From the IMG/VR virus record IMGVR_UViG_3300044960_000113, positions 32,001 to 96,000 of that record: 64,000 nucleotides of DNA; one strand, given 5' to 3'. The translations under genes and the position numbers were made by a program. Under the pieces are notes generated by a model. The model ran no database searches, was not told the DNA's origin, and worked only from the letters and a program-made list of their open reading frames with translations. Each line of letters begins with the position of its first letter. Within the stretch, counting starts at the first letter, position 1. Shown here in pieces: positions 5,493-57,264 of the stretch. The DNA is from a virus.

Positions 5493-6340
5493 TTCCAGAT
5501 AAATTCTCCACCAATATTAATAAATGAATGGTCTGGTTCTGATTTAAAATTGTTATACATACAATAAAAATCACCACCTACTTCTTTTGGTGCACCTTTT
5601 AATGATGTTAATTTATTATTTGAACAATAAAAATCACGACCTACTTCCCTTGGTGCACCTTCTAATGATGTTAATTGATTATCTGAACAATCAAACGTGT
5701 TAGCTACTTCTATTGGTGAACCGTGTAATGATGTTAATTTATTGTTATTACAATAAAAACCACCACCTACTTCCCTTGGTGCACCTTGTAATGATTTTAA
5801 TTGATTATTATGACAATCAAAATAACCATCTACTTCTCTTGGTCCATCTTGTAATGATATTAATTTATTACTATAACAATAAAAATTGCCATTTATTTCT
5901 CTTGGTGCACCTTTCAATGATGTTAATTTATTATTTGAACAATAAAAATCACCACCTACTTCTCTTGGTGCACCTTGTAATAATGTTAATTGATTATCTG
6001 AACAATCAAAATTACCACCTATTTCTCTTGGTGCACTTTCTAATGATGTTAATTTATTGTTATTACAATAAAAACCACCACCTACTTCCCTTGGTGCACC
6101 ATGTAATGATGTTAATTTATTATTTGAGCAACCAAAATTACCATCTACTTCACCAAATTGGATTGGTATATATGTTAATTCTTTAAAAGAAATATTAACA
6201 TCACCATTAACATCAACTATACCATTATCATGAATTGTATAATTTTTAATATACATTTCTTTTAACCAATTCTCTATTTCTTGTTTATCGGTTAAAAATT
6301 TATGTTGTTCTTCTTTTAAAAATAGTTCTTGTAGTTTCAT
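5489..6340 (-). CDS. 21-aa LRR-like repeat protein, 10 modules
   Basis: Same caps and repeat consensus. Confidence 0.9.
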   Translation of the reverse strand: MKLQELFLKEEQHKFLTDKQEIENWLKEMYIKNYTIHDNGIVDVNGDVNISFKELTYIPIQFGEVDGNFGCSNNKLTSLHGAPREVGGGFYCNNNKLTSLESAPREIGGNFDCSDNQLTLLQGAPREVGGDFYCSNNKLTSLKGAPREINGNFYCYSNKLISLQDGPREVDGYFDCHNNQLKSLQGAPREVGGGFYCNNNKLTSLHGSPIEVANTFDCSDNQLTSLEGAPREVGRDFYCSNNKLTSLKGAPKEVGGDFYCMYNNFKSEPDHSFINIGGEFIWK

Positions 6341-6999
6341 TTCCAGGTAAATTCTCCACCAATATTAATAAATGAATGATCTGGTTCTGATTTAAAATTG
6401 TTATTTTTACAAATAAAATCACGACCTACTTCCATTGGTCCACCTTCTAATGATGTTAATTGATTATTTGAACAATTAAAATAACCACCAACTTTTCTTG
6501 GTCCACCTTCTAATGATGTTAATTGATTATTTGAACAATTAAAATAACCACCAACTTCTCTTGGTCCACCATGTAATGATGTTAATTGATTACGTGAACA
6601 ATAAAAATCACCACCTACTTCTCTTGGTCCACCTTGTAAAGATGTTAATTGATTATCTGAACAATTAAAATAACCACCTACTTCTCTTGGTGCACCTTCT
6701 AATGATGTTAATTTATTGTTATTACAATAAAAACCACCACCTACTTCCCTTGGTGTACCTTTTAATGATGTTAATTGATTATATGAACAATCAAAAATAC
6801 CATCTACTTCACCAAATTGAACTGGTATATATTCTAATTTTTTATTAGAAATATCAACATCTCCATTAACATCAACGATACCATTATCATGAATGGTATA
6901 ATTTTCAATTTCCATTTCTTTTAACCAATTCTCAATATCTGATTTATTGGTTAAAAATTTATGTTGTTCTTCTTTTAAAAATAGTTCTTGTAATTTCAT
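6337..6999 (-). CDS. 21-aa LRR-like repeat protein, 7 modules
   Basis: Same caps and repeat consensus. Confidence 0.9.
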   Translation of the reverse strand: MKLQELFLKEEQHKFLTNKSDIENWLKEMEIENYTIHDNGIVDVNGDVDISNKKLEYIPVQFGEVDGIFDCSYNQLTSLKGTPREVGGGFYCNNNKLTSLEGAPREVGGYFNCSDNQLTSLQGGPREVGGDFYCSRNQLTSLHGGPREVGGYFNCSNNQLTSLEGGPRKVGGYFNCSNNQLTSLEGGPMEVGRDFICKNNNFKSEPDHSFINIGGEFTWK

Positions 7000-7529
7000 T
7001 TCCAGATAAATTCTCCACCAATATTAATAAATGAATAATCAGGTTCTGATTTAAAATTGTTATTTGAACAATCAAAATCACCACCCACTTCTTTTGGTGA
7101 TCCTTGTAATGATGTTAATTTATTACTATAACAATCAAAATTACCATTTATTTCTCTTGGTGCACCCCGTAATGTTGTTAATTTATTATCTGAACAATCA
7201 AAATTACGACCTACTTCTCTTGGTGCGCCTTGTAAAGATGTTAAATCATTAAATGAACAACTAAAAGTACCACCCACTTCACTTGGCCCACCTTTTAATG
7301 ATGTTAAATTATTATATGAACAGTCAAAATTACCATCTACTTCACCAAATTGAACTGGTATATATGTTAATTTTTTAAAAGAAATATTAACATTACCATT
7401 AACATCAACAATACCATTATCATGAATGGTATAATTTTTAATGTTCATCTTTTTTAACCAATTTTCTATTTCTTGTTTATCTGTTAAGAATTGTTGTTCT
7501 TCTTTTAAAAATAGTTCTTGTAGTTTCAT
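6996..7529 (-). CDS. 21-aa LRR-like repeat protein, 5 modules
   Basis: Same caps and repeat consensus. Confidence 0.9.
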   Translation of the reverse strand: MKLQELFLKEEQQFLTDKQEIENWLKKMNIKNYTIHDNGIVDVNGNVNISFKKLTYIPVQFGEVDGNFDCSYNNLTSLKGGPSEVGGTFSCSFNDLTSLQGAPREVGRNFDCSDNKLTTLRGAPREINGNFDCYSNKLTSLQGSPKEVGGDFDCSNNNFKSEPDYSFINIGGEFIWK

Positions 7530-8566
7530 TTCCAGATAAAACCTCCCCCAATATTAATAAATGAATGATCAGGTTGTGATTTAAAATTGTTATTTTTACA
7601 AATAAAATCACGACCTACTTCCCTTGGTGCACCATATAATGATGTTAATTGATTATGTGCACAATCAAAATAACCACCAACTTCTCTTGGTCCACCTTCT
7701 AATGATGTTAATTTATTATTTGAACAATTAAAATCACCACCTATTTCTTTTGGTGCACCGTGTAATGATGTTAATTGATTATGATAACAATAAAAACCAT
7801 CACCTACTTCCATTGGCGCACCTTCTAATGATATTAATTTATTACTATAACAATAAAAATTGCCATTTATTTCTCTTGGTGCACCTTTCAATGATGTTAA
7901 TTTATTATTTGAACAATAAAAATCACGACCTACTTCCCTTGGTGCACTTTGTAAAGATGTTAAATAATTATATGAACAATCAAACGTGTTAGCTACTTCT
8001 ATTGGTGAACCGTGTAATGATGTTAATTTATTGTTATTACAATAAAAACCACCACCTACTTCTCTTGGTGCACCTTGTAATGATTTTAATTGATTATTAT
8101 GACAATCAAAATAACCACCTACTTCTTTTGGTCCACCTTCTAATGATGTTAATTGATTACGCGAACAAATAAAATAGCCACCTACTTCCCTTGGTGCACC
8201 TTGTAACGATTTTAATTGGTTATTATGACAATCAAACGTGTTAGCTACTTCTATTGGTGCACCTTCTAATGATGTTAATTTATTGTTATTACAATAAAAA
8301 CCTCCACCTACTTCCCTTGGCGCACCATGTAATGATGTTAATTTATTATCTGAGCAACTAAAATTGCCATCTACTTCACCAAATTGGACTGGTATATATG
8401 TTAATTTTTTAAAAGAAATATTAACATCACCATTAACATCAACAATACCATTATCATGAATAGTATAATTTTTAATGTTCATCTGTTTTAACCAATTCTC
8501 AATATCTGATTTATCGGTTAAAAATTTATGTTGTTCTTCTTTTAAAAATAGTTCTTGTAGTTTCAT
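7526..8566 (-). CDS. 21-aa LRR-like repeat protein, 13 modules
   Basis: Same caps and repeat consensus; longest paralog. Confidence 0.9.
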   Translation of the reverse strand: MKLQELFLKEEQHKFLTDKSDIENWLKQMNIKNYTIHDNGIVDVNGDVNISFKKLTYIPVQFGEVDGNFSCSDNKLTSLHGAPREVGGGFYCNNNKLTSLEGAPIEVANTFDCHNNQLKSLQGAPREVGGYFICSRNQLTSLEGGPKEVGGYFDCHNNQLKSLQGAPREVGGGFYCNNNKLTSLHGSPIEVANTFDCSYNYLTSLQSAPREVGRDFYCSNNKLTSLKGAPREINGNFYCYSNKLISLEGAPMEVGDGFYCYHNQLTSLHGAPKEIGGDFNCSNNKLTSLEGGPREVGGYFDCAHNQLTSLYGAPREVGRDFICKNNNFKSQPDHSFINIGGGFIWK

Positions 8567-9411
8567 TTCCAGGTAAATTCTCCACCAATATTAATAAATG
8601 AATGATTTGGTTCTGATTTAAAATTGTTATTTTTACAAATAAAATTATGACCTACTTCTTTTGGTGCACCTTGTAATGATGTTAATTGATTATCTGAACA
8701 ATAAAAACTACCACCAACTTCTCTTGGTGCACCATATAATGATGTTAATTGATTATTTGAACAATTAAAATAACCACCAACTTCTCTTGGTCCACCATGT
8801 AATGATGTTAATTGATTACGTGAACAATAAAAATCACCACCTACTTCCCTTGGTCCACCTTGTAAAGATGTTAATTGATTACGTGAACAATAAAAATCAC
8901 CACCTACTTCCCTTGGTCCACCTTGTAAAGATGTTAATTGATTATCTGAACAATCAAAATTACCACCTACTTCTTTTGGTGCACCTTCTAATGATGTTAA
9001 ATCATTATATGAACAATTAAAATCACCATTTATTTCTATTGGTCCACCTTGTAATGATGTTAATTTATTAAACGAACAATCAAAATTACCACCTACTTCT
9101 TTTGGTGCACCTTCTAATGATGTTAATTTATTACCATGACAATAAAAACTATCACGAACTGCTCTAGGCGCACCTTGCAATGATATTAATTGATTATGTG
9201 AACATGAAAAATAACCATCTATTTCACCAAATTGAACTCGTAGATATGTTAATCTTTTATTAGAAATACCAACATTACCATTAACATCAACTATACCATT
9301 ATCATGAATTGTATAATTTTTAATATACATTTCTTTTAACCAATTCTCAATATCTGATTTATCGGTTAAGAATTGTTGTTCTTCTTTTAAAAATAATTCT
9401 TGTAGTTTCAT
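8563..9411 (-). CDS. 21-aa LRR-like repeat protein, 10 modules
   Basis: Same caps; contains a perfect internal 63-bp duplication at 8804-8944. Confidence 0.9.
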   Translation of the reverse strand: MKLQELFLKEEQQFLTDKSDIENWLKEMYIKNYTIHDNGIVDVNGNVGISNKRLTYLRVQFGEIDGYFSCSHNQLISLQGAPRAVRDSFYCHGNKLTSLEGAPKEVGGNFDCSFNKLTSLQGGPIEINGDFNCSYNDLTSLEGAPKEVGGNFDCSDNQLTSLQGGPREVGGDFYCSRNQLTSLQGGPREVGGDFYCSRNQLTSLHGGPREVGGYFNCSNNQLTSLYGAPREVGGSFYCSDNQLTSLQGAPKEVGHNFICKNNNFKSEPNHSFINIGGEFTWK

Positions 9412-10130
9412 TTCCAGATAAATTCTCCACCAATATTAATAAATGAATGGTCTGGTTCTGATTTAAAATTGTTATTTTTACAAATAAAATCATGACCTAC
9501 TTCTCTTGGTGCACCATATAATGACGTTAATTGATTATCTGAACAATAAAAACCACCAACTTCTTTTGGTCCACCTTCTAATGATGTTAATTGATTATTT
9601 GAACAATTAAAATAACCACCAACTTTTTTTGGTCCACCTTGTAATGATATTAATTTATTACTATAACAATAAAAATTGCCATTTATTTCTCTTGGTGCAC
9701 CTTGTAATGATGTTAATTGATTACGTGAACAATTAAAATAACCACCCACTTCTCTTGGTGCATTCTGTAATGATGTTAATTGATTATCTGAACAATCAAA
9801 ATTACCACCTACTTCTTTTGGTGTACCTTGTAATGATGTTAATTTATTACCATGACAATAAAAACCATCACGAACTGCTCTAGGTGCACCTTGCAATGAT
9901 ATTAATTGATTATGTGAACATGAAAAATAACCATCTACTTCACCAAATTGAACTGGTATATATGTTAATCTTTTATTAGAAATATTAACATTACCATTAA
10001 CATCAACAATACCATTATCATGAATAGTATAATTTTTAATGTTCATCTTTTTTAACCAATTCTCAATATCTGATTTATTGGTTAAAAATTTATGTTGTTC
10101 TTCTTTTAAAAATAGTTCTTGTAGTTTCAT
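9408..10130 (-). CDS. 21-aa LRR-like repeat protein, 8 modules
   Basis: Same caps; one module is 20 aa (KEVGGFYC). Confidence 0.9.
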   Translation of the reverse strand: MKLQELFLKEEQHKFLTNKSDIENWLKKMNIKNYTIHDNGIVDVNGNVNISNKRLTYIPVQFGEVDGYFSCSHNQLISLQGAPRAVRDGFYCHGNKLTSLQGTPKEVGGNFDCSDNQLTSLQNAPREVGGYFNCSRNQLTSLQGAPREINGNFYCYSNKLISLQGGPKKVGGYFNCSNNQLTSLEGGPKEVGGFYCSDNQLTSLYGAPREVGHDFICKNNNFKSEPDHSFINIGGEFIWK

Positions 10131-41710: not shown

Positions 41711-42742
41711 TTATATTTCTTTTAAAATTTCGTTAAGTGGTTTCATTTGAGATAGCAATTTAGGATTTGGTTTACCACCAATATATCCACCAGTATTTAT
41801 CCATGTATTAGTTTTGATAGGACCAGATTCTAAATAGTCTTTTTGTTTGATTGTTAGTAAATCGTTTCCATATTGTACGACTAATAATGCATTATCTCCC
41901 CATTTTTTGTTTGCACTTAATCGTTCACCACACCACACTAATAATTTTCCATTTACCTCTATAAATTTTTTACCTTTTATAATTGGATTAAATGGTTTAA
42001 TTATGTTAATTAAATCATCATTTGTAAAAGAGATAGTTTTTTCAACCTTAACTTTTTCAACCTTAACTTTTTCAACCTTAAGTTTTGGAAGTTTGGGCGG
42101 TTTTTCAAGAACTTCTGTAATTTCTACAGTATCTGTTATTTTTCTATTAAAGGTTTTTTCAACTACAGATTTATCACCTATTTCAGGAGTATCAGTCTTA
42201 GGCCATTCTCCAAGTTCTTTAACTGGTAATAATGGAAGATTTGATGTTGGTTGTTCAGCTCTACTAAAACTCATATCATACTCTAATGCTGAATAACAAA
42301 CATGGTTAATATGATGCAGTACTTGGTTTTTTTCTAGTCCTAGTTTATCGGCATATGGATTATAGTTGTTTAATGCTAAACCTTGTGGATGTGCTTCTGA
42401 AATTTTAAACCATTTCTCTATTTCTTCTTCACCACTCCAAAATTTTGGATTAGGCAGTCCATCTACTAGATAACCAAGTCGATGCTGAAGTACCCAATGA
42501 TTATCATCAATCAGTTCAATAGAGAATAACATATTATCAAGGATATGTTTCTCATCATGACCGGCTTGGAGTAATCTAGCTTTGATCTCAACAAGGAAAT
42601 TGCCATCACCTGCGGCAGGTTCTAGCCATGTTAGATTAGGATTGAACCAGATTTCAGGTGGAAGCTTGTCCAGCATCTCATGAATTAAAGATGCTGGAGT
42701 GAAGACTTCACCAGATTGTTTAATGCGAGATCTAGATTTCAA
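41711..42742 (-). CDS. DNA adenine methyltransferase-like protein (SAM-binding half, no NPPY)
   Basis: GEVFTP, LEPAAGDGNFL (motif I), SIEL; no motif IV seen; 15-bp repeat x3 at 42038-42081. Confidence 0.7.
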   Translation of the reverse strand: MKSRSRIKQSGEVFTPASLIHEMLDKLPPEIWFNPNLTWLEPAAGDGNFLVEIKARLLQAGHDEKHILDNMLFSIELIDDNHWVLQHRLGYLVDGLPNPKFWSGEEEIEKWFKISEAHPQGLALNNYNPYADKLGLEKNQVLHHINHVCYSALEYDMSFSRAEQPTSNLPLLPVKELGEWPKTDTPEIGDKSVVEKTFNRKITDTVEITEVLEKPPKLPKLKVEKVKVEKVKVEKTISFTNDDLINIIKPFNPIIKGKKFIEVNGKLLVWCGERLSANKKWGDNALLVVQYGNDLLTIKQKDYLESGPIKTNTWINTGGYIGGKPNPKLLSQMKPLNEILKEI

Positions 42743-45700
42743 TCTTTTATAGTACTTTCTATTAAATCAATTTCTTCTTGTGTTAAATTAAAATATTCAT
42801 ATAATTCTTGATCTGTCCATGATTTAGAAATATCAACATATGGAATATGATAACAGAAAAAATCTGTAGCAAAACCCCCTGATCTATTATTAACATTTAA
42901 AAATTTAATTAATTTAGAATTTAAATAATTTATTAAATTATTTCCCTCTTTTTCATTTTTAACTTCTATAGCATGAGAATGCCAACATGTTCCGCGTGTT
43001 CCTTCATCATAAATGGGATTAAATTCACCACAATTTGAAAATAATACTTTAGTTAAAGTTAAATCTTTAGGTTCTTTTTCAGCCCATGATAATTGTTGGG
43101 CATTAGTGTTAAATATTGGATATTTAAATTTGTCATTTTTTATTTTTGATGCATAATAAATTTTACTTTGAGAAATTTTAAAATATTTTTTATTTTCTAA
43201 TGTTTTATTTTGAATACTAAAATATTCATCTTTAATAATATTATTGTATATAGATGGAATATTTTTATTAATGTTAACATGTCTTTTAGTATTATTAATA
43301 ATAAATTCAGTATTTTTATAATTATTATTATTTTCTAACAACCACCAACATATATCAACGCCAACATTAAAAATATCTTTAGATAAAATATTAACTGATT
43401 TAAGATTTTTTGTTAAAAATAATTTTTTTGTTTTTTCACATTTTATCCATGTTGTTGGTGTTACTAAACATAAAGTTCCATCTTGTTTAAGATATGGAAG
43501 AAGTTTGTGAATAAATTTTTTCCATAAAGAATGTGTTTTATTTCCACCACTTTGATTGCCTTGATATGGAGGATTCCCAATAATAATATCAAATTTCATA
43601 TCTTTCAAATTGTCCCATTTAATAACATTAAACCCAAGTCTTTCGAGGTGGTCAATAAAAAAATTAAAATATTCTAAACATACAATTTCCGCATTAGGAA
43701 ATTCCCGTTTTAACACTATTGGTAATGCACCATTTAATGCATTTACTACACCAATGTTAATTTTACCTTTTGTATATTTATTCTTCGGAATTGCTTTAAC
43801 AATGTCTTCAGCTAAATCAAAACTCATATATACTAAACCTAATTTTTGTTTGTTTGTCGTGTTTTCAAAAATTTCTTCATATAAAATTTTTAATGATGAT
43901 AAACTTGGTTCTAATTTACCATCTTCAGGTTGTAATAGATAAGAATACGCTTCTTTTCGAACGTTTAAATATTCTGTCAGTATCGATTCAAATTTTTTAT
44001 TTTTCTTAATTTCTGTTATAACAACGTCCATAACCTCTTCTGAAAACATTTCTTTAATAGCGTTATTACTTAAAACTTTAATGACATCAAAATTATTAGT
44101 AGTAAATGATACCCATTGAGCTTCTTTCATAATCGCTTGAATAAGCTCTTCAATTTGTTCAATTCTATTAGTTTCTTGTTTATTATTTTTATTTTTTAAT
44201 AAATTGGCTAGATATATGTTTTTTACTTTCGATCCGTTTTTATTAGTTAAAGATATATTTTTAAACTTAGTTTTAAATTTAAAATTATTAATATCAATAT
44301 TTTTCCATGTATTTTTTAAATCGAATTTTGAAATGCATTCATATAGGTTATTAGATGATAATTTATTTTTTATTGAAGATTTATAATAATCTTGAACTGA
44401 AGATAATATTTCTTCAGTTGTATATGTTTTATTATTGCCATTAATATCATATTCCGTAAGTGGAATACAATCTAACATTCCGACTGTAGAACAAGATTTA
44501 TCTAATTCTGATGTTTTTTTGGACATCAGTCCCATAACAATCATAAGATCGTTGCCAGGCACCAATGAATAAAGTTTTACTTCATCTTTTCCTGGATATA
44601 GACGAATCAGTCTACCCAAAAGTTGTTCAAATCCACTAATGTCGGAAATTTTATCCATTAGCACGATATGTCCTAATGGAGGAATATCAGTTCCTACTAT
44701 AAATTTCCCGCATGTCAAGATAATAACTTGTTTATACTCTTTTAAAAGAGTTTCAACATATTCATTGATTGTTATGTTTCGTTTTTTAGCATTTTTTTCT
44801 ATTGCGTAACTATCAATAAAATGTACGCCTTTTACGTTTTCATTTAATAATTTAGCTAAAGCTGGTATATATTCACCAGCACTATCACCATTTTGACCTT
44901 GTGGTAAAACCCACATGCCACACTTTTTAGAAACTGTACTTAGTTGTGGATCATTGATAATGCTTAATGGGTTTTTCTTTTTACTCAAAGAACTTGTATA
45001 AAGTCTATTTGGAAGTTCTATTATTTCATATTGTAAAACAAAATTTAAGTTTTCTCTCGCAAATAATTTTCTAGGATCAAATCCTTCTTCTGAAGAATAA
45101 ATACTGGCGATTCTATCACTTATTGAACTAAATGGTGTATTAAATACTTCTATCCTAATTTTTGGGAGTTTAGTGTGTTCGCGATATTTTAAACCCCAAA
45201 GAAGAGATCTTGACACAATTTCATCATTATTATAATAATGATAAACTTTATATGGTGTGGCCGTTAAATCGAGTATTTTTTTTGGTTTTATTTCACTAAG
45301 TACCTTTTTAGTAAAAGGCGCTTCATATTGAGAATGCCTTTCATCTATAATCCATAGATCAATATTATTAACGAGAAATTTATATTTGCTTCGTAGTGTA
45401 ATTATTTCATTTTGAATTTCAGAATTTTCTGAATATCTAACATCTTGAACAGTTAAGACAATAAAAATTAATTCTCCTGCTAGTTTTCTTTTAATAAGCT
45501 CTTTTACATTATATTTTTTAAATTCTTTTGAGTCAATATATGTTATTTTGCGGTTTCGATTATAACCAAAGTGGTAATTTTCGATATTTTCTTCAAAACT
45601 TTTTTTAGTATCAGAAATAGGAGTAGTAACTAATACAAAACCACCTTCTTTGATGTGACGTGCTGCCACTTCTATAGCAATCATTGTTTTTCCTCTGCCA

Positions 45701-46260
45701 GTATACGCAGAAAATAAACAGCGATGTTTATTATTTAGGTACACATTAAGAATATCTGATATATCTTTTTCCTGCATCCATCGCCACTGTGGATTAATTT
45801 TAGTACAATAGTCTTTAGTTAAACCTAACATATGTTTAAAAATATTAATGAGATCGGGTAAATCTCTATCCTTATTAAATTTTAAAAGTGCTTCACCGTT
45901 AGTATTTTCTTCCTGATATTTCGTATAGTTTGCACTAAAAGAAATTAAACCTTTTTTATGTCTTTTATTAATTTCTTTTCGAAGATCATTATCATAATTT
46001 TTCTTTTTATCAGAAACATCAAAAACAATTATAGCATTAGCTACTAAATCTTCACTTAATGAAGATTTACTACCTTTATATCTCAACTCAAATGCTTTAC
46101 TGGGAGTAACTCCAGAATAAGATTCGGCAGTAAATTCGCCAAGTTTATTATTACTAGTAATATATATACAACCTTGCCCAGGAACAAGGCAACCATTATT
46201 TAATGGGGTTTTTGATAAATGAAATATTTCAGCTTTAGAACCATCAATTTTTACACTCAT
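42739..46260 (-). CDS. SF2 helicase / Eco57I-type adenine methyltransferase fusion (restriction-modification-like)
   Basis: AYTGRGKT, IDERH, LTATP, QLLGRLIR; C-terminal DIIIGNPPY and TRD-like tail. Confidence 0.8.
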   Translation of the reverse strand: MSVKIDGSKAEIFHLSKTPLNNGCLVPGQGCIYITSNNKLGEFTAESYSGVTPSKAFELRYKGSKSSLSEDLVANAIIVFDVSDKKKNYDNDLRKEINKRHKKGLISFSANYTKYQEENTNGEALLKFNKDRDLPDLINIFKHMLGLTKDYCTKINPQWRWMQEKDISDILNVYLNNKHRCLFSAYTGRGKTMIAIEVAARHIKEGGFVLVTTPISDTKKSFEENIENYHFGYNRNRKITYIDSKEFKKYNVKELIKRKLAGELIFIVLTVQDVRYSENSEIQNEIITLRSKYKFLVNNIDLWIIDERHSQYEAPFTKKVLSEIKPKKILDLTATPYKVYHYYNNDEIVSRSLLWGLKYREHTKLPKIRIEVFNTPFSSISDRIASIYSSEEGFDPRKLFARENLNFVLQYEIIELPNRLYTSSLSKKKNPLSIINDPQLSTVSKKCGMWVLPQGQNGDSAGEYIPALAKLLNENVKGVHFIDSYAIEKNAKKRNITINEYVETLLKEYKQVIILTCGKFIVGTDIPPLGHIVLMDKISDISGFEQLLGRLIRLYPGKDEVKLYSLVPGNDLMIVMGLMSKKTSELDKSCSTVGMLDCIPLTEYDINGNNKTYTTEEILSSVQDYYKSSIKNKLSSNNLYECISKFDLKNTWKNIDINNFKFKTKFKNISLTNKNGSKVKNIYLANLLKNKNNKQETNRIEQIEELIQAIMKEAQWVSFTTNNFDVIKVLSNNAIKEMFSEEVMDVVITEIKKNKKFESILTEYLNVRKEAYSYLLQPEDGKLEPSLSSLKILYEEIFENTTNKQKLGLVYMSFDLAEDIVKAIPKNKYTKGKINIGVVNALNGALPIVLKREFPNAEIVCLEYFNFFIDHLERLGFNVIKWDNLKDMKFDIIIGNPPYQGNQSGGNKTHSLWKKFIHKLLPYLKQDGTLCLVTPTTWIKCEKTKKLFLTKNLKSVNILSKDIFNVGVDICWWLLENNNNYKNTEFIINNTKRHVNINKNIPSIYNNIIKDEYFSIQNKTLENKKYFKISQSKIYYASKIKNDKFKYPIFNTNAQQLSWAEKEPKDLTLTKVLFSNCGEFNPIYDEGTRGTCWHSHAIEVKNEKEGNNLINYLNSKLIKFLNVNNRSGGFATDFFCYHIPYVDISKSWTDQELYEYFNLTQEEIDLIESTIKD

Positions 46261-47304: not shown

Positions 47305-47556
47305 TTATAATTCCTTCAATGAAATTATATTTGATATTTTAAATGAACGCCATTCTTTTTTGTCTAAATCGTATACTGATAAAATCTCTAAATTTTCTTT
47401 CTTTTTTCTTTTATTTTCTTCATTAGAGTTATTTTTTGGTAATAAATCTGGTTTAAGAGTACAACGCATTTTTCGAATATCACCATTAATTTTTTTAAAT
47501 TCTATTTCACATTCTTTTTCTAACAATGTTTGTTTGACTATACATCTAGTGTACAT
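47305..47556 (-). CDS. WYL_2/DUF2693-like SH3 beta-barrel protein
   Basis: IEFKKINGDIRKMRCTL...VYDLDKKEWRSF. Confidence 0.75.
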   Translation of the reverse strand: MYTRCIVKQTLLEKECEIEFKKINGDIRKMRCTLKPDLLPKNNSNEENKRKKKENLEILSVYDLDKKEWRSFKISNIISLKEL

Positions 47557-47560
47557 AATT

Positions 47561-48169
47561 TTATCCTTTCATTTTAAAAATAGAATTTTTTATCATAGAC
47601 ATTGCCATATCTATATCTGTTCCAGGAACAATCAGATCATATTCATGTTCTTGGATCCATTTTATTTCTTCAGTAAATACAGATTTTAATCGATTAATTA
47701 TTTGACAAAAAACTTTATTTTTATCATCATTTTTATTTAATTCAGATATAAACCTTTCAATCAATCTGTTCATACGTATACTTTTTGGTGTATATACAAA
47801 AATTTTTAACATTTTTAATTCATTATTTTTACAATATTGTTTATATAAAGTAACTCCATTAGGTTCAACAATTATTGCACCAGGTTTATCATAACTAACT
47901 TTATTCAAAATCTCATCATTTGTTGTTCCATAATATGTTCCATTATAATTAACAACTTCAACAAAATTGTTATTATTCATTTGTGACTTAAATTGTTCTG
48001 TTGTTAAAAAGTAATAGTCTTTGCCTTCAATTTCACCAACTCTAGGTTGTCTAGTTGTATATGAAATTATTTTATTGACAACACCAAATTTTACTAATGA
48101 ATCTAGTAAATATGATTTACCAGCAGCTGACTCACCAGTTATTGTTATAAAAATCAAATTATTTTTCAT
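47561..48169 (-). CDS. gmk: Guanylate kinase-like protein
   Basis: GESAAGKS, SYTTRQPRVGEIEGKDYYF, NGTYYGT. Confidence 0.85.
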   Translation of the reverse strand: MKNNLIFITITGESAAGKSYLLDSLVKFGVVNKIISYTTRQPRVGEIEGKDYYFLTTEQFKSQMNNNNFVEVVNYNGTYYGTTNDEILNKVSYDKPGAIIVEPNGVTLYKQYCKNNELKMLKIFVYTPKSIRMNRLIERFISELNKNDDKNKVFCQIINRLKSVFTEEIKWIQEHEYDLIVPGTDIDMAMSMIKNSIFKMKG

Positions 48170-48941
48170 TTATTATTTCCTCAATAATTTTAATTTCTTC
48201 TTGTGTGTTATAACTTAATTGTGGATAATCTGTTACTATTGCACGTGCTGGAAAACCTATATTATAAAAATAATGAATAATATATAAAAATGTCATCTCT
48301 CCAGAATCTGTTATATATCGTCCATTTTTATAATATGCTGCATTTAATACATCTAATGAATTTTCTAAACATGTTTTACAACATAGAAATATACATTGGT
48401 CATGAAAACCACTCAAATGTTTTTCACCACGTTTAGAAAAATCAACACTTATACAATTCATATCATTATCAGTTAAAAATGTTACATATGGATTATCTTC
48501 TTTAACAACTGGCACTAACATAGGTTTAATATCATAAAGTTTATCAAATGAAATACATTCTTCAAAAATATAATTATTTGAAATATATGCATCACCCCAC
48601 AATATAAAAAATTTTTCAGTTAATTCTTCTTTTAAATTTTTAATTTCTTTTATTGCTTCCATCACTGCATGTCCATCACCTTTTCCAGAATCAATAGCAA
48701 TTACACGTATTTCACTATTATATTTTGGATTACAACCAATATAATTTCCAACAAATAAATCGAATTTATCAACGTTTTTCTTATTTGAAACAACATAAAT
48801 ACGTCTAAAAATACCATTAATTTTATTTAATGTATTTTCTAAATTTGGAGTTCCATTTATATTAATAAGTGCTTTAGGTATGGAAATATTACCCATTCTG
48901 GTTCCATTGCCTGCAGCAATTATAAGTAAATCATAATCCAT
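48159..48941 (-). CDS. Sugar-phosphate nucleotidyltransferase (NTP_transferase family)
   Basis: IIAAGNGTRMG...PKAL, GDGHAV, ILWGD. Confidence 0.82.
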   Translation of the reverse strand: MDYDLLIIAAGNGTRMGNISIPKALININGTPNLENTLNKINGIFRRIYVVSNKKNVDKFDLFVGNYIGCNPKYNSEIRVIAIDSGKGDGHAVMEAIKEIKNLKEELTEKFFILWGDAYISNNYIFEECISFDKLYDIKPMLVPVVKEDNPYVTFLTDNDMNCISVDFSKRGEKHLSGFHDQCIFLCCKTCLENSLDVLNAAYYKNGRYITDSGEMTFLYIIHYFYNIGFPARAIVTDYPQLSYNTQEEIKIIEEIINEK

Positions 48942-48942
48942 A

Positions 48943-50826
48943 TTAATTATTTTTATCTAATGTTAATAATAAAGTTTTTAGAAAAATTAGTGTTTCTCGT
49001 GGATTTTTTACTTGTAAAAAATCAACATTTTTACTATGTGCTATAGCATAATCATTTCCGCCAGACATACCTTCATCACCCACATAAACAATTTTTGTAT
49101 TATCATCCATATCTTTAATAATATCATTTAATGCTTTTAATTTAGCATCACTACCTTTAGAAATATCTATAGTTGTTCTACCTGTTGGTCTTACATAATA
49201 ATTTGAACCAAGTTTCATCTGAAGTAATATAGAAAGTGGCTTTCTATATTCATTTTCTATAGGTTTAATTGATATTGTTGCATTATTTCTATTTTGAATT
49301 TTATTAATTTCAAATCCTAATTCTTCTAATATTGTCAAAATATCATTAATTTCTTTTTCTGAAAATGTTGATGGTGTGTGTACACAATTAATATATTTTT
49401 TATTAACTTCATCATATTTTATTGGGATATACTCTAGTAAATATTTGTTTATTCCACCATCAGCATATAATGTAATATTGTTAAATAACACACTATAATT
49501 TTGACTTAATACTTTATTAAAAAATTGTGATGATATAATAGATTTATCAATTGTGTTTGAAGATATTTTTTTAAAAGTTAAATTTATAGATTTTTCAGAA
49601 TTTCCCGTTATAATGTTTATATTTTTATTAAATTTTGTCAATGTCCATAATAATAATTTATTTGTTTGTGATTCTATATAATATTCATTATTCCGTCCTA
49701 CTAATGTATCATCGTAATCAAATGCATATGTATGTGAATTTAAATATTTTTTATAATATGAATGCATAATTGCCCATGCTAAACTTTCTGGGTGATGTTT
49801 TTTATCGTTTTTATTTTCAGATAATGTATATACAGAATAATTAATAGATGATTTATCATCTTTTGATATATTATTGACTGACATTTCATCTGATGCATTT
49901 TTATTGAAAATAAAATGGACATTTTTAATATTAATATATTCTGAAATGATTTTTATCATTTCATATGAATTAACACCACTCATATCTTTATCTTGTATAT
50001 TATTAATAATGCAAAATATTTTATTTGATTTGAATGCATTTGATGATTCAAATGTTTTTTCAAAATCTACACTAATATATGTTGGAATTAATGAAGACCA
50101 TTGTGTTCCAGACGATAGAACAATAATGTCAGCATTCTGAATTGCATTTTTTGCACGTTGAGTTAAATGAGGTAATCTTATAATACCACCAGTATCAACA
50201 AGTCTAATATGATCTATTTTATCTTTTGGATTGTTCCAATTTACTATATCACCTTCATCTAATATGATATGACCGGATTTTGTAATTGCTTGAAGAAATA
50301 AACTTTCATCAGAACTTGGAATTACAGCATCTTCTTCAATTTTCAATAATTTTGCCATTTCTATTCCAGCTGCTTCCATAGAATAATTGTGTTTGGCAGC
50401 CAATCCAGCATAAATTATATTAGATATTGAAAAATCTGAATATGTTATTTGACGTGATTTTGGATATAAAAAATATGTTTTAATTGCGTCAAAAGCAACA
50501 TCTTTGAATTCATCATTATTTTCTAATTTATTTAATTCATGAATACAGTATTGTTCTGCATCTTCAGCTGAACAATCAAATCTAATATCCATGAATTTAT
50601 AGAGTTGCGTTTCACCATATAATAATTTATGACGTAATGTTTGATTTTTACGTAAATCAGATGGGCCTAAAATTTTACCATCCATAACTTGTCTAACTGC
50701 ACCTGTTGATTTACCATTATCATATAAGTTTGTAATTACATTAATTTCTAAATTATTAAATAAATTATTTAAACCTGTTTGAAGTGCTATAGAACCTGTT
50801 CCACCAGAAAAAATAACTAATTTCAT
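48943..50826 (-). CDS. CofD/UPF0052 (YvcK-like) domain fused to a HAD-IIB phosphatase/phosphomutase
   Basis: N-term FSGGTG, YDNGKSTG, GPSDLRK, ADIIVLSSGTQWSSLIP; C-term FDYDDTL, IITG, GRTTIDI, YVGDE...GGND. Confidence 0.82.
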   Translation of the reverse strand: MKLVIFSGGTGSIALQTGLNNLFNNLEINVITNLYDNGKSTGAVRQVMDGKILGPSDLRKNQTLRHKLLYGETQLYKFMDIRFDCSAEDAEQYCIHELNKLENNDEFKDVAFDAIKTYFLYPKSRQITYSDFSISNIIYAGLAAKHNYSMEAAGIEMAKLLKIEEDAVIPSSDESLFLQAITKSGHIILDEGDIVNWNNPKDKIDHIRLVDTGGIIRLPHLTQRAKNAIQNADIIVLSSGTQWSSLIPTYISVDFEKTFESSNAFKSNKIFCIINNIQDKDMSGVNSYEMIKIISEYINIKNVHFIFNKNASDEMSVNNISKDDKSSINYSVYTLSENKNDKKHHPESLAWAIMHSYYKKYLNSHTYAFDYDDTLVGRNNEYYIESQTNKLLLWTLTKFNKNINIITGNSEKSINLTFKKISSNTIDKSIISSQFFNKVLSQNYSVLFNNITLYADGGINKYLLEYIPIKYDEVNKKYINCVHTPSTFSEKEINDILTILEELGFEINKIQNRNNATISIKPIENEYRKPLSILLQMKLGSNYYVRPTGRTTIDISKGSDAKLKALNDIIKDMDDNTKIVYVGDEGMSGGNDYAIAHSKNVDFLQVKNPRETLIFLKTLLLTLDKNN

Positions 50827-50841
50827 ATAATTAATTCCTTT

Positions 50842-51975
50842 TTATATATTTTTAATTAATAAATTGATAAAATCAGTACAATATTTTTTAGCATCAAAAT
50901 TAATTGCTTTAAATTGCGCATCAATAATATCTTTCCTTGCACTATTATCATTTATAAGAAGTCTTAATTTATTTTCAGCATCTTCTCTAGAGCTCACATA
51001 TAAAAAATCTATTAAATCTTTATCGTTTTTATAAAATCTTTTTTCTTTATCTAGATCTGAATCGATAAATGTTATACATTGTGCAACTACTGATTCAGAT
51101 GCTCTTTGTGCCATATCAGATATTTCTTCATACCATGGATCTCCTATAACAATATGAGACATAGCACTATTCATCTTTTCTAACATTTTATCATATTTGA
51201 CGACACCTGTAAAATTTGGTGTTCTTAAATTACTTATCAAATTAGGATTAAAATCTTTAAGTTCTATTTTTCCAAACATTTCTACAATAATATCTTCAGG
51301 CCATCCAAAATAATATTTTATCATTTTTTTAATTCTTTTACCACCTCTCATTGTTCCACCATATGAAAGATGAACTGTTGGTGCTTCATTAAATGGTTTT
51401 GGTGTATTTAAAAATGGAAATAATTCAAATGGATAATGTTTTATTCCGCGAATATTAGAAACTTCATATTTACCAAATGAATTTTTAACCTTTTCTGTAT
51501 TAAATGGTTGACAAATATAAAAAATATCATCACGCGTTATTTCTATATCTTTTTTATTATATTTTTTACCCCATTCTTTTTTTTCTACAGAATGCCAAAT
51601 TTGTTTTAATGTTAATTCTGGATCACATAAAATATAAAATATTGGACCTTTAAAATTGTTTATTATATGATAATTTGCTATTTGATATTCATCTTCAGTA
51701 CCACCAAAAAAATTAACATTCCCGTTTAATATACACAATGCATCTAATGATAAATTATTAATTTTATCTTTAAATTCTAAAGTATCAACAATTAAAACGT
51801 TTTCAATCGGTTTTTCTGGCTCATTTTTAATGCGTTTAGATAATGCAATAACTTGAGCACCGCCATTGATCATCATTTTTATTAATGATATAGTTTCTCC
51901 AGTACCACCACTTGTTCCTTGATTATCAAAAGAAATACGTGCACCTAATTTAATTACACCTAATTTTATTGACAT
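50842..51975 (-). CDS. bgt: T4 beta-glucosyltransferase-like DNA glycosyltransferase
   Basis: Colinear with T4 BGT: GET (E22), NFFGG, YILCD (D100), YGGTMRGGKR (R191/R195), FTG, IGD, RASE (R269/E272). Confidence 0.85.
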   Translation of the reverse strand: MSIKLGVIKLGARISFDNQGTSGGTGETISLIKMMINGGAQVIALSKRIKNEPEKPIENVLIVDTLEFKDKINNLSLDALCILNGNVNFFGGTEDEYQIANYHIINNFKGPIFYILCDPELTLKQIWHSVEKKEWGKKYNKKDIEITRDDIFYICQPFNTEKVKNSFGKYEVSNIRGIKHYPFELFPFLNTPKPFNEAPTVHLSYGGTMRGGKRIKKMIKYYFGWPEDIIVEMFGKIELKDFNPNLISNLRTPNFTGVVKYDKMLEKMNSAMSHIVIGDPWYEEISDMAQRASESVVAQCITFIDSDLDKEKRFYKNDKDLIDFLYVSSREDAENKLRLLINDNSARKDIIDAQFKAINFDAKKYCTDFINLLIKNI

Positions 51976-52493
51976 AATGCCTCTTTCAAAATATCTTTTG
52001 GATCTTTATAATATCCATTATTGTTAATATCAATAATTTTTTTATTTTTAATTTTTGATCTGTTAAATGCAAATTTAAATAACTCTTGTTCTTCTGTTTT
52101 TCTTTTAAAATTAAAACTTTTACCATCATCTTTTAGAAATGAAAAATCTGATGTTGTTAAAAGAATAAGTTTTATATTATCTATTTTATAAATAGAATAA
52201 TCTTGTTCCATATCAAATACATAATTTCCAGAATATCCACGATATAATGGTGAATAGACACATTCACCTAAATGAAATCTATTAAAAATAATTGGAATAT
52301 TATGTTTTTCTGATAACAATTTAAATCCATATTCAAATGATGTTTTTTGATATTTAAATAAATCATTATCATAAATAGCAATTTTTTGTGGTTTCGTATA
52401 ATGTATTACAAAATGAAAACCCAAATGTTGAATTATTTGATTTATTAATGTATCTTTTCCTAATCTGTCTATTCCTTCTATTATGAATTTCAT
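51966..52493 (-). CDS. Thymidylate-kinase-like dNMP kinase
   Basis: IIEGIDRLGKDT P-loop, FNRFHLGECVYSPLYRGY. Confidence 0.78.
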   Translation of the reverse strand: MKFIIEGIDRLGKDTLINQIIQHLGFHFVIHYTKPQKIAIYDNDLFKYQKTSFEYGFKLLSEKHNIPIIFNRFHLGECVYSPLYRGYSGNYVFDMEQDYSIYKIDNIKLILLTTSDFSFLKDDGKSFNFKRKTEEQELFKFAFNRSKIKNKKIIDINNNGYYKDPKDILKEALCQ

Positions 52494-52503
52494 ATTTTTA
52501 AAA

Positions 52504-52797
52504 TTATTCCCATATTATTATATTATTTGAATTTGCCAATTCAGCTAAAATTTCACCATGACATAATTTAGGTGAACACCAACAACCAAGCTTTTTATTT
52601 TTTAATTCTGATATTTGACTTAATAATTCTTTATTTGATAATATCCAATTTTTATATTTAGCCACAACTTCTTCACGAGTTCCATCTTTTCCTATTTCAA
52701 ATGGGTTACCCCATTTAGATGGTCTACCAACATAAACATCATATTCTGATTTTTTACAATGAACAACATATTTTTTATATGGTCTTTTATTCATCAT
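52504..52797 (-). CDS. DUF4326 domain protein
   Basis: VYVGRPSKWGNPF, LGCWCSPKLCHG. Confidence 0.85.
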   Translation of the reverse strand: MMNKRPYKKYVVHCKKSEYDVYVGRPSKWGNPFEIGKDGTREEVVAKYKNWILSNKELLSQISELKNKKLGCWCSPKLCHGEILAELANSNNIIIWE

Positions 52798-54511
52798 TAT
52801 TTAAGAAACTTTTTTGCATTGTTAAAAATTCTTTTTGCCAGATATTGTTTTTAGAACGCCATAATCTAGATATATTACTATCTATCATATACGTAATTGC
52901 ATAATCTTCTTTAGATCTTACACTTCTACCAGAACCTTGAACTAATCTTTTTATTGTCATTAATTCATATATTTCTGGATAATTTTCCATAATATATTTA
53001 ATTCGTTTATCTCCTAATGATGCAAATGGTGCCTTAACAAATATTTGAAATCTAGAATGATCATCTGGTAAATCTATTCCTTCAAACATAGATGGAGATA
53101 ATAATATTGATGGACTATCATAATTTTTAAACATTTCTAAAATTTTTTCTAATTTTTCTCCTCTAATATGTTCAAATACTTTAACATTATTTTTTCTTAA
53201 AAATTTAGATAATCTTTCAGATACAACAAAACTTGGGCACAATACTATCCCTTTATCAGAACTATGAAATTTAACTATTTCTAAAACAGTTTTGTCTATT
53301 TTTGATAAAACTGTTTCATCTTTCATTGAATTATAATTTAATGATTGTGGTTTGTAAAAAACAATTTTTTTATTTTCTTTTGGAAATGTTGGTTCAACAT
53401 GTATAAATTTGGTTTTATTTTTATTTAAATTTAATGTTTTTATTAAAAAATGATCTGATATTGTTGCAGACATAAAAATATTAAAATCTGAAAATCTCAA
53501 TGTTTTTTCAAACATATCACCAACAAAAATTGGTTTAATAGAAAATTCATTTTCACCATTTTCTTTAATTAATTGTGGGACATGTTCATAACCATATTTT
53601 AATAAATCATCAATCTTACAACCTAATCCAAAATATTTTTTATGTAATCTTGAAAATTGTGTATATTTGTTAATATTTTTTATATTCATTTCCATCTCAG
53701 ATTTACACTGTTCTGCAATTAATTTATATGCATTATATAATGGTAACATATATGCCATATATGTTTTTTCATTTAAAAGGCCATCTTTTAAATCTGTTGT
53801 TATACGTTTAATTGTGTTATAAACATCTGTTTTACCAAGTTTAAGATGATTAGTAATTTCTTCGGTTATTTTATTAAAATGTTTTTCAGAAATATAAATC
53901 GCATTATGTTCTGTAAATATATCATTGATTGTATGAGCCTCATCCCACACAGTTACACATCTTTTAGATAAAACATCTGCATACATTCTATCAACAAAAT
54001 AATAACTATAATTTGTGATTAAATGTTTAACAGTATTTCGTTTATTTTTTACATCTAAATATTCACATTTATAGCATTTTTGTACAGCATTTGCCATTAC
54101 GTCATCTATAGTATTATTTTGCAGTACTCCAAACATACATTCTTCTGCTGTATAAAAATCATCAGAATTTTTTGATACAGAATTTAATGCGTCACATGGA
54201 TATTGACTTGCACCTTTCAGTTGTGCAAAATTATGATTTCCAGAAAATGTTTTATAATATTGTTTAGCTAAAGCATTATTATGTACTAGAATTATAGATG
54301 ATAAATCACTTTTTTGAATTTTTCCGATACATTCAGCAGTAACAGCACCAATTAATGATTTACCTGTTCCAGTTGGTGCACATAAAATAATATCGTTATA
54401 TCTTTCATCAAGAATGGATATTAAGATATTATTAATAGTTTCAACTTGATTATCTCGTGGAAAAAAATTTAATGATGCATATGCATCATTGATTAATTGT
54501 TCATATTTCAT
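52787..54511 (-). CDS. DinG/YoaA-like SF2 helicase
   Basis: APTGTGKS, DEAH, SAT, EGID, QGSGRSVR, D..R. Confidence 0.88.
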   Translation of the reverse strand: MKYEQLINDAYASLNFFPRDNQVETINNILISILDERYNDIILCAPTGTGKSLIGAVTAECIGKIQKSDLSSIILVHNNALAKQYYKTFSGNHNFAQLKGASQYPCDALNSVSKNSDDFYTAEECMFGVLQNNTIDDVMANAVQKCYKCEYLDVKNKRNTVKHLITNYSYYFVDRMYADVLSKRCVTVWDEAHTINDIFTEHNAIYISEKHFNKITEEITNHLKLGKTDVYNTIKRITTDLKDGLLNEKTYMAYMLPLYNAYKLIAEQCKSEMEMNIKNINKYTQFSRLHKKYFGLGCKIDDLLKYGYEHVPQLIKENGENEFSIKPIFVGDMFEKTLRFSDFNIFMSATISDHFLIKTLNLNKNKTKFIHVEPTFPKENKKIVFYKPQSLNYNSMKDETVLSKIDKTVLEIVKFHSSDKGIVLCPSFVVSERLSKFLRKNNVKVFEHIRGEKLEKILEMFKNYDSPSILLSPSMFEGIDLPDDHSRFQIFVKAPFASLGDKRIKYIMENYPEIYELMTIKRLVQGSGRSVRSKEDYAITYMIDSNISRLWRSKNNIWQKEFLTMQKSFLNNDE

Positions 54512-55173
54512 TTTATTAAATTAAAATGTCTTTCGTAAACGTGAAGTGATCCAACTGTCCAATATATATTACCCATTTTTACCAATAATTTAGAATTATT
54601 TAAATCATTTACCAATTTTTCTAAAACATATTTTTGCCATCCATAATCATTTTTATATCCAAATACGACATCTTGTGATCTCATTCTAACATGTGCATGA
54701 AGTTTATTGTCTCTAATGAAATATTGGACAGCATCAGTACACATAAAATCTGACATACCATTATAATTATAATCTATCCACATTGATGGACGAGTGTAAA
54801 TCATCTCAGCTCGTCTCGTTGATTCACCATTTTTAATGAGTTCATTTTTTACATTTTCATATTGATTATAGTTTTCTTTAGAAAAAATACACCAACCATA
54901 ATTTGAGTTTATTTTTCCTTCTTTTGAAGCAACCTGTTGCCAAACTTGTGGAGGACCACCTGGAATATCTTTAATATATAGAGATTGAGATTCGTACCAG
55001 CTTATTTCTCTTTTTAGATAATCTTCGTTAACTGTTCCAAAAATAGCTGGTTCATCTGCTATAAAACTTTCTGCTAATAATTCTACTGTTTTTACACCAG
55101 TTTTGTCTATTACAAAATCTTTATTTTTTAATTTTTCAATAAATTTTTTTCTTATATCATATACTTTTTGCAT
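54508..55173 (-). CDS. gp42: dCMP hydroxymethylase (T4 gp42-like)
   Basis: KDFVIDKTGVKTVE, WQQVAS..G.INSNYGW, DFMCT (Cys148 equivalent), RSQDVVFGYKND (Asp179 equivalent), GSLHVY. Confidence 0.93.
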   Translation of the reverse strand: MQKVYDIRKKFIEKLKNKDFVIDKTGVKTVELLAESFIADEPAIFGTVNEDYLKREISWYESQSLYIKDIPGGPPQVWQQVASKEGKINSNYGWCIFSKENYNQYENVKNELIKNGESTRRAEMIYTRPSMWIDYNYNGMSDFMCTDAVQYFIRDNKLHAHVRMRSQDVVFGYKNDYGWQKYVLEKLVNDLNNSKLLVKMGNIYWTVGSLHVYERHFNLIK

Positions 55174-56733: not shown

Positions 56734-57264
56734 ATGAGTACCGTTAATCAATCAAAAAGATATTTAGGAAATCGTTCAGTTTATTTTGGTCCAGATCTAC
56801 CTGAAACAGATTTAGAAGATGGATTTTTATTCTATAAAACTGGAACAAACGCTGGATTGTATATTTATAAAAATTCAACATGGGAATTAACTTCAGTTAC
56901 AAATATTACTAATCTTACTGGGACAATTAACGATCTTGCTGGAGTATTAAATATATCTAAAGGTGGAACTGGTGCAACTAATGCTTCAGCAGCTTTAACA
57001 AATTTGGGCGGTGTCACATTAGCACAAGTTCAAACAGAGATTCAAACCACAAATATAAATTCTCTTGCTGGAGTATTAAATATATCTAAAGGTGGAACTG
57101 GTGCAACTAATGCTTCAGCAGCTTTAACAAATTTGGGCGGTGTCACATTAGCACAAGTTCAAGCAGAGATTCAAACCGTAAATAGAAATTCTCAAGGAAA
57201 TAAAACAGTGTCAACATCAACACCTGTTGGTGGTTCTGATGGAGATATTTGGTATCAATATTAA
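56734..57264 (+). CDS. Tail fibre protein with a 43-aa internal duplication
   Basis: LNISKGGTGATNASAALTNLG twice; C-terminal GSDGDIWYQY. Confidence 0.75.
   Translation: MSTVNQSKRYLGNRSVYFGPDLPETDLEDGFLFYKTGTNAGLYIYKNSTWELTSVTNITNLTGTINDLAGVLNISKGGTGATNASAALTNLGGVTLAQVQTEIQTTNINSLAGVLNISKGGTGATNASAALTNLGGVTLAQVQAEIQTVNRNSQGNKTVSTSTPVGGSDGDIWYQY
56934..57177. repeat. Direct repeat, 115-bp copies with 129-bp period
   Basis: 56934-57048 vs 57063-57177, one mismatch seen. Confidence 0.9.

Follow-up and report, generated by a model that had tools for sequence, protein, structure and literature searches.

The window analysed here is a stretch of 64,000 nucleotides, bases 32001–96000 of the 184,280-bp viral record IMGVR_UViG_3300044960_000113 in IMG/VR. 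CheckV puts the completeness of the record at 52%, which implies a genome of about 350 kb; the G+C content is about 27%. Eight genes, all on the minus strand, fill exactly positions 47561–55173 of the window, and successive genes overlap by 4–11 nt or are separated by 1–15 nt (Table 1). Domain calls were made by Pfam and PHROG scans of the window proteins. These scans agree with an earlier list of the run made from the letters alone (the sequence-only reading), and the order, strand and coordinates in that list were reproduced. Among public genomes, the closest relatives of these genes lie in the Ralstonia jumbo phage RsoM2USA (344 kb) and in the uncultured phage LR756500 (462 kb). The cluster is best read, with a probability of roughly 0.58, as a self-contained module for glycosylated 5-hydroxymethylcytosine (5hmC) DNA in a jumbo phage of about 350 kb, in which a phage-encoded donor pathway feeds a DNA glycosyltransferase. 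Three adjacent genes are central to this reading. They encode a homolog of the T4 beta-glucosyltransferase (BGT), a two-domain fusion protein and a nucleoside triphosphate (NTP) transferase, and they are referred to below as the triad; the fusion and NTP transferase genes are the cassette that accompanies the BGT gene.

The first gene of the run encodes a thymidylate synthase (TS) homolog that matches the T4 dCMP hydroxymethylase (1B5D) with a phmmer E value of 1e-88 and is 61% identical to T4 gp42 (tblastn). Alignment reveals that the T4 residues D145, C148, D171 and D179 are all retained in the window protein. They include the catalytic Cys148 and Asp179, the latter at the position of ThyA Asn177, where it confers cytosine specificity. 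C148 and D179 are present in all 10 aligned related TS homologs, and the four-residue signature in every cassette-linked one, including RsoM2USA ORF10 and the LR756500 homolog. The 5-hydroxy-dCMP synthases of RB69-type phages have Asn at the position of Escherichia coli ThyA Asp169 (Lee et al., NAR 2026, PMC13326640). The window protein and every linked homolog have Asp at this position, which corresponds to T4 D171, so the D169N diagnostic of 5-hydroxycytosine (5hoC) chemistry is absent and that chemistry was rejected. The retained gp42 residues and the absence of D169N together indicate that the base is 5hmC. Judged by these residues, the protein is a genuine dCMP hydroxymethylase. The sequence-only reading had allowed either 5hmC or 5-hydroxy-C; the first is upheld by the gp42 signature and the second is disfavoured. 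A canonical TS is also encoded in the genome (25250–26158, minus strand; PF00303, 355 bits), and the two enzymes coexist as they do in T4 and RsoM2USA.

The BGT homolog matches T4 BGT (1BGT) with an E value of 2e-25 and about 25% identity. In the T4 enzyme Glu22 and Asp100 are catalytic, and Arg191, Arg195, Arg269 and Glu272 are ligands of the UDP phosphates. All six are kept in the window homolog, in agreement with what had been read from the sequence. They are also kept across 23 aligned relatives, save for LR756500, which has Gln at position 272, and for one relative (L013) that is cut at position 22. On these conserved residues, the protein is a T4-BGT-family transferase with an intact predicted catalytic and nucleotide-phosphate-binding site.

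Table 1. Genes of the 47561–55173 cluster, a conserved upstream neighbor, and a gene found after the cluster in relatives. Positions are those of the window unless a locus is named.
Product	Position	Strand	Basis
dCMP hydroxymethylase, gp42 orthologue by conserved residues, 221 aa	54508..55173	-	Thymidylat_synt/phrog_160
DinG/XPD-type helicase, 574 aa	52787..54511	-	Helicase_C_2 + DEAD_2 + ResIII; phrog_2488, 285 bits
DUF4326 protein, 97 aa	52504..52797	-	PF14216, 101 bits
Thymidylate-kinase-like nucleotide kinase, 175 aa, candidate hmdCMP/dNMP kinase	51966..52493	-	phrog_761, E 1e-8
BGT-like DNA glycosyltransferase, 377 aa, GT63 family	50842..51975	-	T4-Gluco-transf PF09198, 63.1 bits, cut-off 27
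Two-domain YvcK-like + PMM-type HAD fusion, 627 aa	48943..50826	-	CofD PF01933, 75.6 bits, + C-terminal HAD
Predicted sugar-1-phosphate nucleotidyltransferase, 260 aa	48159..48941	-	NTP_transf_3/IspD match; GlmU-type model fold
Guanylate kinase, 202 aa	47561..48169	-	PF00625, 86.3 bits over residues 8-198; phrog_1815
Conserved upstream neighbor ORF, 310 aa	55710..56642	-	homologs upstream of gp42 in ~20 loci
NTP pyrophosphatase of relatives	L009:13398-13826; L033:13356-13784; L014:13386-13982; RsoM2USA ORF477 (L041:3217-3663)		

The fusion protein and the adjacent nucleotidyltransferase

The fusion protein was modeled with AlphaFold from a 34-sequence alignment (mean pLDDT 91.5). Its N-terminal domain, residues 1 to about 360, matches YvcK/GlmR (UPF0052) structures with Z scores of 25–31 and an rmsd of 2.5–3.3 over 282–301 residues; for the best matches, at Z 31, the rmsd is 2.5–3.2 over 290–301 residues. 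CofD and FbiA structures are matched with Z scores of about 20, and a sequence search with the domain retrieves YvcK-type chains only. The motifs GGTG, DNGxSTG and P(S/G)DxRN, common to YvcK and GlmR, are present. Of the three positions altered in the GlmR3 mutant (D40, D41 and N198), the first corresponds to an invariant D36, the second is Asn as in Staphylococcus epidermidis YvcK, and the third is Thr249. The sequence-only reading had called the protein a CofD-HAD fusion. The CofD profile match and the HAD domain stand, but with a Z score of 31 to YvcK against 20 to CofD the N-terminal domain is better called YvcK/GlmR-like. A true CofD function in coenzyme F420 synthesis is not favored, as the domain is closer to YvcK and its partner is of the GlmU/RmlA type; other F420 genes were not searched for. 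The fusion also differs from YvcK/GlmR of Firmicutes and Actinobacteria. It carries a second, phosphomannomutase (PMM)-type domain, it is not part of a yvcJ-glmR-whiA operon, and it occurs in phages and polysaccharide loci, whereas YvcK/GlmR serves cell-wall homeostasis.

The C-terminal domain, residues of about 362–627, matches Lactococcus alpha-phosphoglucomutase (alpha-PGM) and eukaryote-type PMMs with Z scores of 16–18. Its profile retrieves PMM/alpha-PGM chains with E values from 1e-12 to 3e-6, and the only other matches are three ordinary HAD phosphatases at 2e-4 or worse. HAD motif I, DxDxT (D370/D372/T374), is present in every aligned fusion homolog. Motif IV, GDE..GGND, is invariant in 34 phage-type homologs, and several copies from gut metagenome-assembled genomes (MAGs) have GNE..G[NSH]E. 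The PMM-like cap segment N-R-G...K-P-I is conserved in the phage copies. The domain thus shares with the PF03332 enzymes their fold, the DxDxT motif, the R-x-G...(S/K)-P-I cap and the GDxxxxGGND motif IV; it differs from them in being the C-terminal half of a fusion and in having only 16–21% identity. By fold, profile and motifs it is a HAD-IIB domain of the PMM/alpha-PGM type and a predicted mutase. More than 600 full-length fusion homologs occur in metagenomes, many of them on contigs of 330–370 kb.

The alignment of the NTP transferase contains a GxGxR...PK signature in which G11, R15 and K23 are invariant. Its profile matches IspD, GlmU, TarI and G1P-TT. The AlphaFold2 model (pLDDT 95.9) aligns over its full length with the GlmU pyrophosphorylase domain (TMq 0.80 over 268 columns), and HddC, GalU and RmlA follow close behind. 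A full-length fold of the GlmU/RmlA/GalU type together with the signature marks the protein as a sugar-1-phosphate nucleotidyltransferase of the GlmU/RmlA type. An IspD/CofC/MobA-type identity, suggested by single-sequence matches to IspD and TarI, was overturned by this full-length model match.

Linkage in phages and bacteria

Within the window the BGT and fusion genes are 15 nt apart and the fusion and NTP transferase genes 1 nt apart. The linkage extends to other phages. An alignment-based scan of viral contigs yielded 33 loci anchored on the fusion, a first scan with single-sequence patterns having given no matches. BGT lies within 10 kb of the fusion in 31 of the 33 loci, and 31 of the 33 have the NTP transferase. 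The full order gp42, DinG, thymidylate kinase (TMK)-like, BGT, fusion, NTP transferase and guanylate kinase is common to about 20 loci, and the recurrent order spans dozens of divergent viral contigs.

A second set of 70 loci was anchored on BGT. In 39 of these loci the BGT shares 36% identity or more with that of the window; 37 of the 39, RsoM2USA included, have the fusion, and the triad is linked in 37. The fusion is present in none of the 19 loci of a second BGT clade (31–35% identity) and in none of 11 T4-type loci. In a quick maximum-likelihood tree, with SH-aLRT support only, the cassette-linked BGTs form one group of 31 (SH-aLRT 88), and two exceptions lie on long branches inside this group. 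The pattern fits a single origin and long retention of the cassette. Two BGT loci that lack the cassette (L093 and L096) have no alternative sugar genes within 10 kb.

Comparison of the cluster with 50,697 GenBank phage records by megablast gave no matches. In a protein search of these records, RsoM2USA and LR756500 were the only phages with matches to the fusion and the TMK-like gene. In RsoM2USA the BGT is ORF2 and the fusion ORF1, and the NTP transferase is at the opposite end of the linear record; it would be contiguous with the fusion if the genome is circularly permuted. The paper describing this phage annotates ORF2 as a beta-glucosyltransferase, and the portions of its text that were searched contain no DNA modification analysis. 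One relative, complete at 345 kb, has a 340-aa Methyltransf_23 S-adenosylmethionine-dependent methyltransferase (L004:8970-9992, the same genome as L085:11570-12592) and a 115-aa ORF between BGT and the fusion, and its sole TS homolog is about 210 kb away. The methyltransferase is a hint that the sugar may be methylated in this lineage.

The remaining genes of the run follow different patterns. The TMK-like protein scores 19 bits against the Pfam TMK profile, below the cut-off of 27, and has no sequence match in the PDB; in the ESM Atlas it lies among viral TMK/dNK-like clusters (TM 0.86–0.90). Its gene is adjacent to BGT or within about 1.5 kb upstream of it in most cassette loci, at 40–56% identity. 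About 20 related loci also have DinG (43–47% identity), placed after gp42 and before the TMK-like gene; it is probably a syntenic neighbor helicase and not a modification enzyme. DUF4326 is confined to the cluster of this genome: at E 1e-4, none of the related loci has a homolog. Guanylate kinase follows the NTP transferase in 16 of 39 BGT-anchored loci, each of which also has a close gp42/DinG/TMK set, and it never accompanies the sugar triad alone. This restriction makes it look like a nucleotide-precursor enzyme and not a partner of the sugar pair. DinG, DUF4326 and probably guanylate kinase look like nucleotide- or DNA-metabolism neighbors rather than sugar enzymes.

Outside phages, the fusion and NTP transferase genes are adjacent in 13 of 13 bacterial MAG loci, none of which has a BGT or TS homolog in the vicinity. 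Neighbors were annotated widely in two of these loci (L062 and L050), and in four others only selected shared neighbors were annotated. The annotated neighbors are polysaccharide genes: initiating sugar transferases, GT2 and GT8 glycosyltransferases, LicD, a Wzx-type flippase, an epimerase/dehydratase, and SIS and GHMP heptose genes. Polysaccharide loci are the usual site of dedicated sugar-nucleotide genes, and the presence of the pair there suggests a portable unit that serves glycan synthesis in the same way. In a Lachnospiraceae MAG (L062:1967-15627) the pair lies among GDP-heptose-type genes (SIS, GHMP kinase, NTP_transferase and 4,6-dehydratase), GT2, LicD and a Wzx flippase.

Proposed pathway and alternatives

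The genes suggest the following route. The gp42 orthologue would make 5hm-dCMP, the TMK-like kinase, perhaps with guanylate kinase, would take it towards the triphosphate, and the phage polymerase would incorporate it. The PMM-like domain would convert a hexose-6-phosphate to the hexose-1-phosphate, from which the nucleotidyltransferase would form an NDP-hexose, with the YvcK-like domain handling some nucleotide-sugar step. The BGT-like enzyme would then move the hexose onto the hydroxymethyl group of hmC in DNA. Orthology and conserved residues argue for the gp42 and BGT steps. For the mutase and nucleotidyltransferase steps it is the modeled folds that point to these reactions, and the substrates given are presumptive. 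Whether the sugar is glucose or another or modified hexose stands at roughly even odds. The tight, clade-specific linkage suggests that the BGT depends on the cassette, which favors a donor that is not reliably supplied by the host; by itself, however, such linkage does not show that the sugar is other than glucose. The sequence-only reading had proposed that the phage makes its own non-glucose or extended NDP-donor and installs a possibly new glycan. What survives of this is a gp42/BGT cytosine module with a PMM-type mutase and a nucleotidyltransferase locked to one BGT clade; the non-glucose sugar and the extended glycan found no support.

In T4, 5hmC glucosylation employs the gp42 dCMP hydroxymethylase, the gp1 dNMP kinase, the gp56 dCTPase and a beta-glucosyltransferase, and UDP-glucose comes from the host. 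The cluster resembles this system in its gp42 orthologue, which has the same active-site signature, in a transferase of the BGT family whose catalytic and phosphate-binding residues match, and in a plan in which hmC would be synthesized before replication and the sugar then transferred onto DNA. It differs from T4, which relies on host UDP-glucose, in having the PMM/YvcK-like fusion and the sugar-1-phosphate nucleotidyltransferase locked to the transferase. The BGT also falls in a separate clade, TMK-like and guanylate kinases are present (T4 gp1 was not searched for), and a search for gp56 in the 184-kb fragment and three complete relatives gave no homolog. The module can be regarded as T4 hmC glucosylation in a variant form, with donor synthesis encoded by the phage.

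The arabinosyl-5hoC clusters of RB69 and DLP3 and the RL38J1 cluster likewise combine a TS homolog, a TMK-like "nucleotide kinase", a DNA glycosyltransferase and NDP-sugar genes, among them a nucleotidyltransferase and a HAD phosphatase (PMC13326640). For RB69-type phages, the sequence-only reading had a TMK-like gene and sugar genes close to gp42; Table 1 of that paper agrees as to placement, but the TS homolog there is a 5hoC synthase and not gp42. These phages use the D169N enzyme to make 5hoC, whereas the Asp is kept here and hmC is expected. Their sugar route begins with ribulose-5-phosphate and employs a SIS isomerase and a kinase, and Pfam detects neither enzyme in this cluster; their transferases are not of the BGT type, and they have no YvcK/CofD-like or PMM-type domain. 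No report linking CofD, 2-phospho-L-lactate transferase or phosphomannomutase with phage DNA modification was found in the papers searched, which agrees with the earlier remark that no characterized cluster has a CofD-like member. No description of a BGT/fusion/NTP transferase cassette was found either.

Several observations weigh against the donor-pathway reading. Besides gp56, no enzyme of the PRA-PH/MazG type was detected in the 184-kb fragment, either with the MazG profile or with a hidden Markov model built from the NTP pyrophosphatase of relatives. With no dCTPase match in a record that is 52% complete, complete replacement of cytosine is not established for this phage. In many relatives a PRA-PH/MazG-superfamily NTP pyrophosphatase gene directly follows guanylate kinase (Table 1), and its product is a plausible candidate dCTPase. 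HAD-IIB sugar phosphatases match the C-terminal domain of the fusion with Z scores of 14.5–16, close to the 16–18 of the PMMs, so a phosphatase role is possible for this domain. The linked loci belong to related phages, and the counts given above are therefore not independent events. The assignment of the YvcK-like domain is a further difficulty. GlmR binds UDP-sugars and has been reported to make UDP-N-acetylglucosamine; this uridyltransferase reaction is the sole activity reported for the YvcK family (10.1101/2021.10.27.466214) and has been questioned in vivo (10.64898/2026.06.23.733835). Such a role would duplicate that of the adjacent classical nucleotidyltransferase. The domain could be a second nucleotidyltransferase, as reported for Listeria GlmR, a sugar-phosphate modifier, or a regulator.

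A bolder proposal is that the cassette goes beyond supplementing UDP-glucose and that the YvcK/CofD-like domain carries out a step without precedent in DNA modification, either transfer of a phospho-group to give a phosphodiester adduct or formation of an unusual NDP-hexose. This is put forward tentatively, at odds well short of even. If it is true, a jumbo phage clade that includes the isolate RsoM2USA has an undescribed DNA base, and the same pair of enzymes represents an uncharacterized precursor route in bacterial polysaccharide synthesis.

The phosphotransfer version of this idea can be stated more precisely. CofD acts on the beta-phosphate of lactyl-diphospho-guanosine, and the CofC/CofD pair is established F420 biochemistry. 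By analogy, the YvcK/CofD-like domain would attack the beta-phosphate of an NDP-sugar, give sugar-1-phosphate or a phospho-group to hmC or glycosyl-hmC, and release NMP; the product would be a phosphodiester-linked hypermodification, and guanylate kinase would recycle GMP. The domain does belong to the CofD superfamily by profile and fold, and an NTP transferase with MobA/IspD-like matches encoded beside it mirrors the CofC/CofD arrangement. The scheme would also explain why a classical nucleotidyltransferase is constantly paired with a second nucleotide-handling domain. In many loci a guanylate kinase gene comes after the pair. In addition, bacterial homologs lie in polysaccharide loci, where phosphodiester substituents are common, and L062 has LicD. 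These features are offset by the greater similarity of the domain to YvcK/GlmR in both structure and sequence searches, and by the NTP transferase, which is of the GlmU/RmlA sugar-1-phosphate type with no CofC match. No cassette locus without a close gp42/DinG/TMK set contains guanylate kinase, and the literature searched yielded no DNA base with a phosphodiester-linked modification. Phosphotransfer onto DNA is the main rival reading and is considered unlikely.

Somewhat less likely still is that the cassette does not act in DNA modification, and instead provides a sugar nucleotide for glycans of the virion or host envelope or for metabolic takeover, leaving the BGT to use host UDP-glucose and produce plain beta-glucosyl-hmC. 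T4 BGT needs no phage sugar genes, the bacterial pair lies in polysaccharide loci without BGT or a TS homolog, and some relatives, such as L004, have further glycosyltransferases near the cassette. A cassette unconnected with DNA would not be expected to remain beside BGT through rearrangements and in proteins that are down to 29–36% identical, to be absent from the two other BGT clades, or to be packed as closely as the triad is in the window. That unrelated genes of nucleotide and sugar metabolism came together here by chance is very improbable. The density of auxiliary metabolic genes in jumbo phages and the restriction of DUF4326 to this cluster could be cited in its favor, but conservation of the full gene order in about 20 loci and of the triad in 37 of 39 contradicts it.

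Under the donor-pathway reading, the cluster is of interest because phages classically use glycosylated hmC to protect themselves from restriction enzymes and CRISPR nucleases, and the set of effective host defenses shifts with every new sugar. A widespread group of giant phages possibly contains a new DNA base. The phage context also provides a clean handle on the disputed biochemistry of YvcK/GlmR, namely a three-domain pathway with a defined DNA end product. The occurrence of the pair in bacterial polysaccharide loci suggests that this sugar-nucleotide route, so far unstudied, is a general one. As the cultured phage RsoM2USA carries the triad, a direct test is possible.

Surrounding genes

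The ORF upstream of gp42 in the window has no Pfam or PHROG match, and the ESM Atlas yields only unnamed viral clusters for it; its homologs are 35–50% identical. Promoter-like sites at the cluster are no commoner than in shuffled sequence. Terminator-like matches number 6, with 2.2 expected, and do not mark the ends of the cluster.

Directly after guanylate kinase is a gene for an 83-aa WYL_2 (Sm-like SH3 barrel) protein (47305–47556, minus strand), in the place where relatives have the NTP pyrophosphatase. A few genes downstream of the cluster, a 1173-aa protein (42739–46260, minus strand) combines a ResIII/DEAD helicase (residues of about 158–337) with an Eco57I-like/MTS methyltransferase (about 878–955), and may have a second, methylation-type DNA-modification or anti-restriction function. 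On the other side the coding strand switches at about 56.7 kb. The plus-strand genes at 56734–63034 include a gp38-like tail-fiber adhesin domain (57249–58115), DUF4376 (58133–58930) and a 1008-aa protein without a family. Near the start of the window, positions 1750–10723 of the minus strand contain a long co-oriented run of genes for proteins of 180–350 aa each, with successive overlaps of 4 nt.

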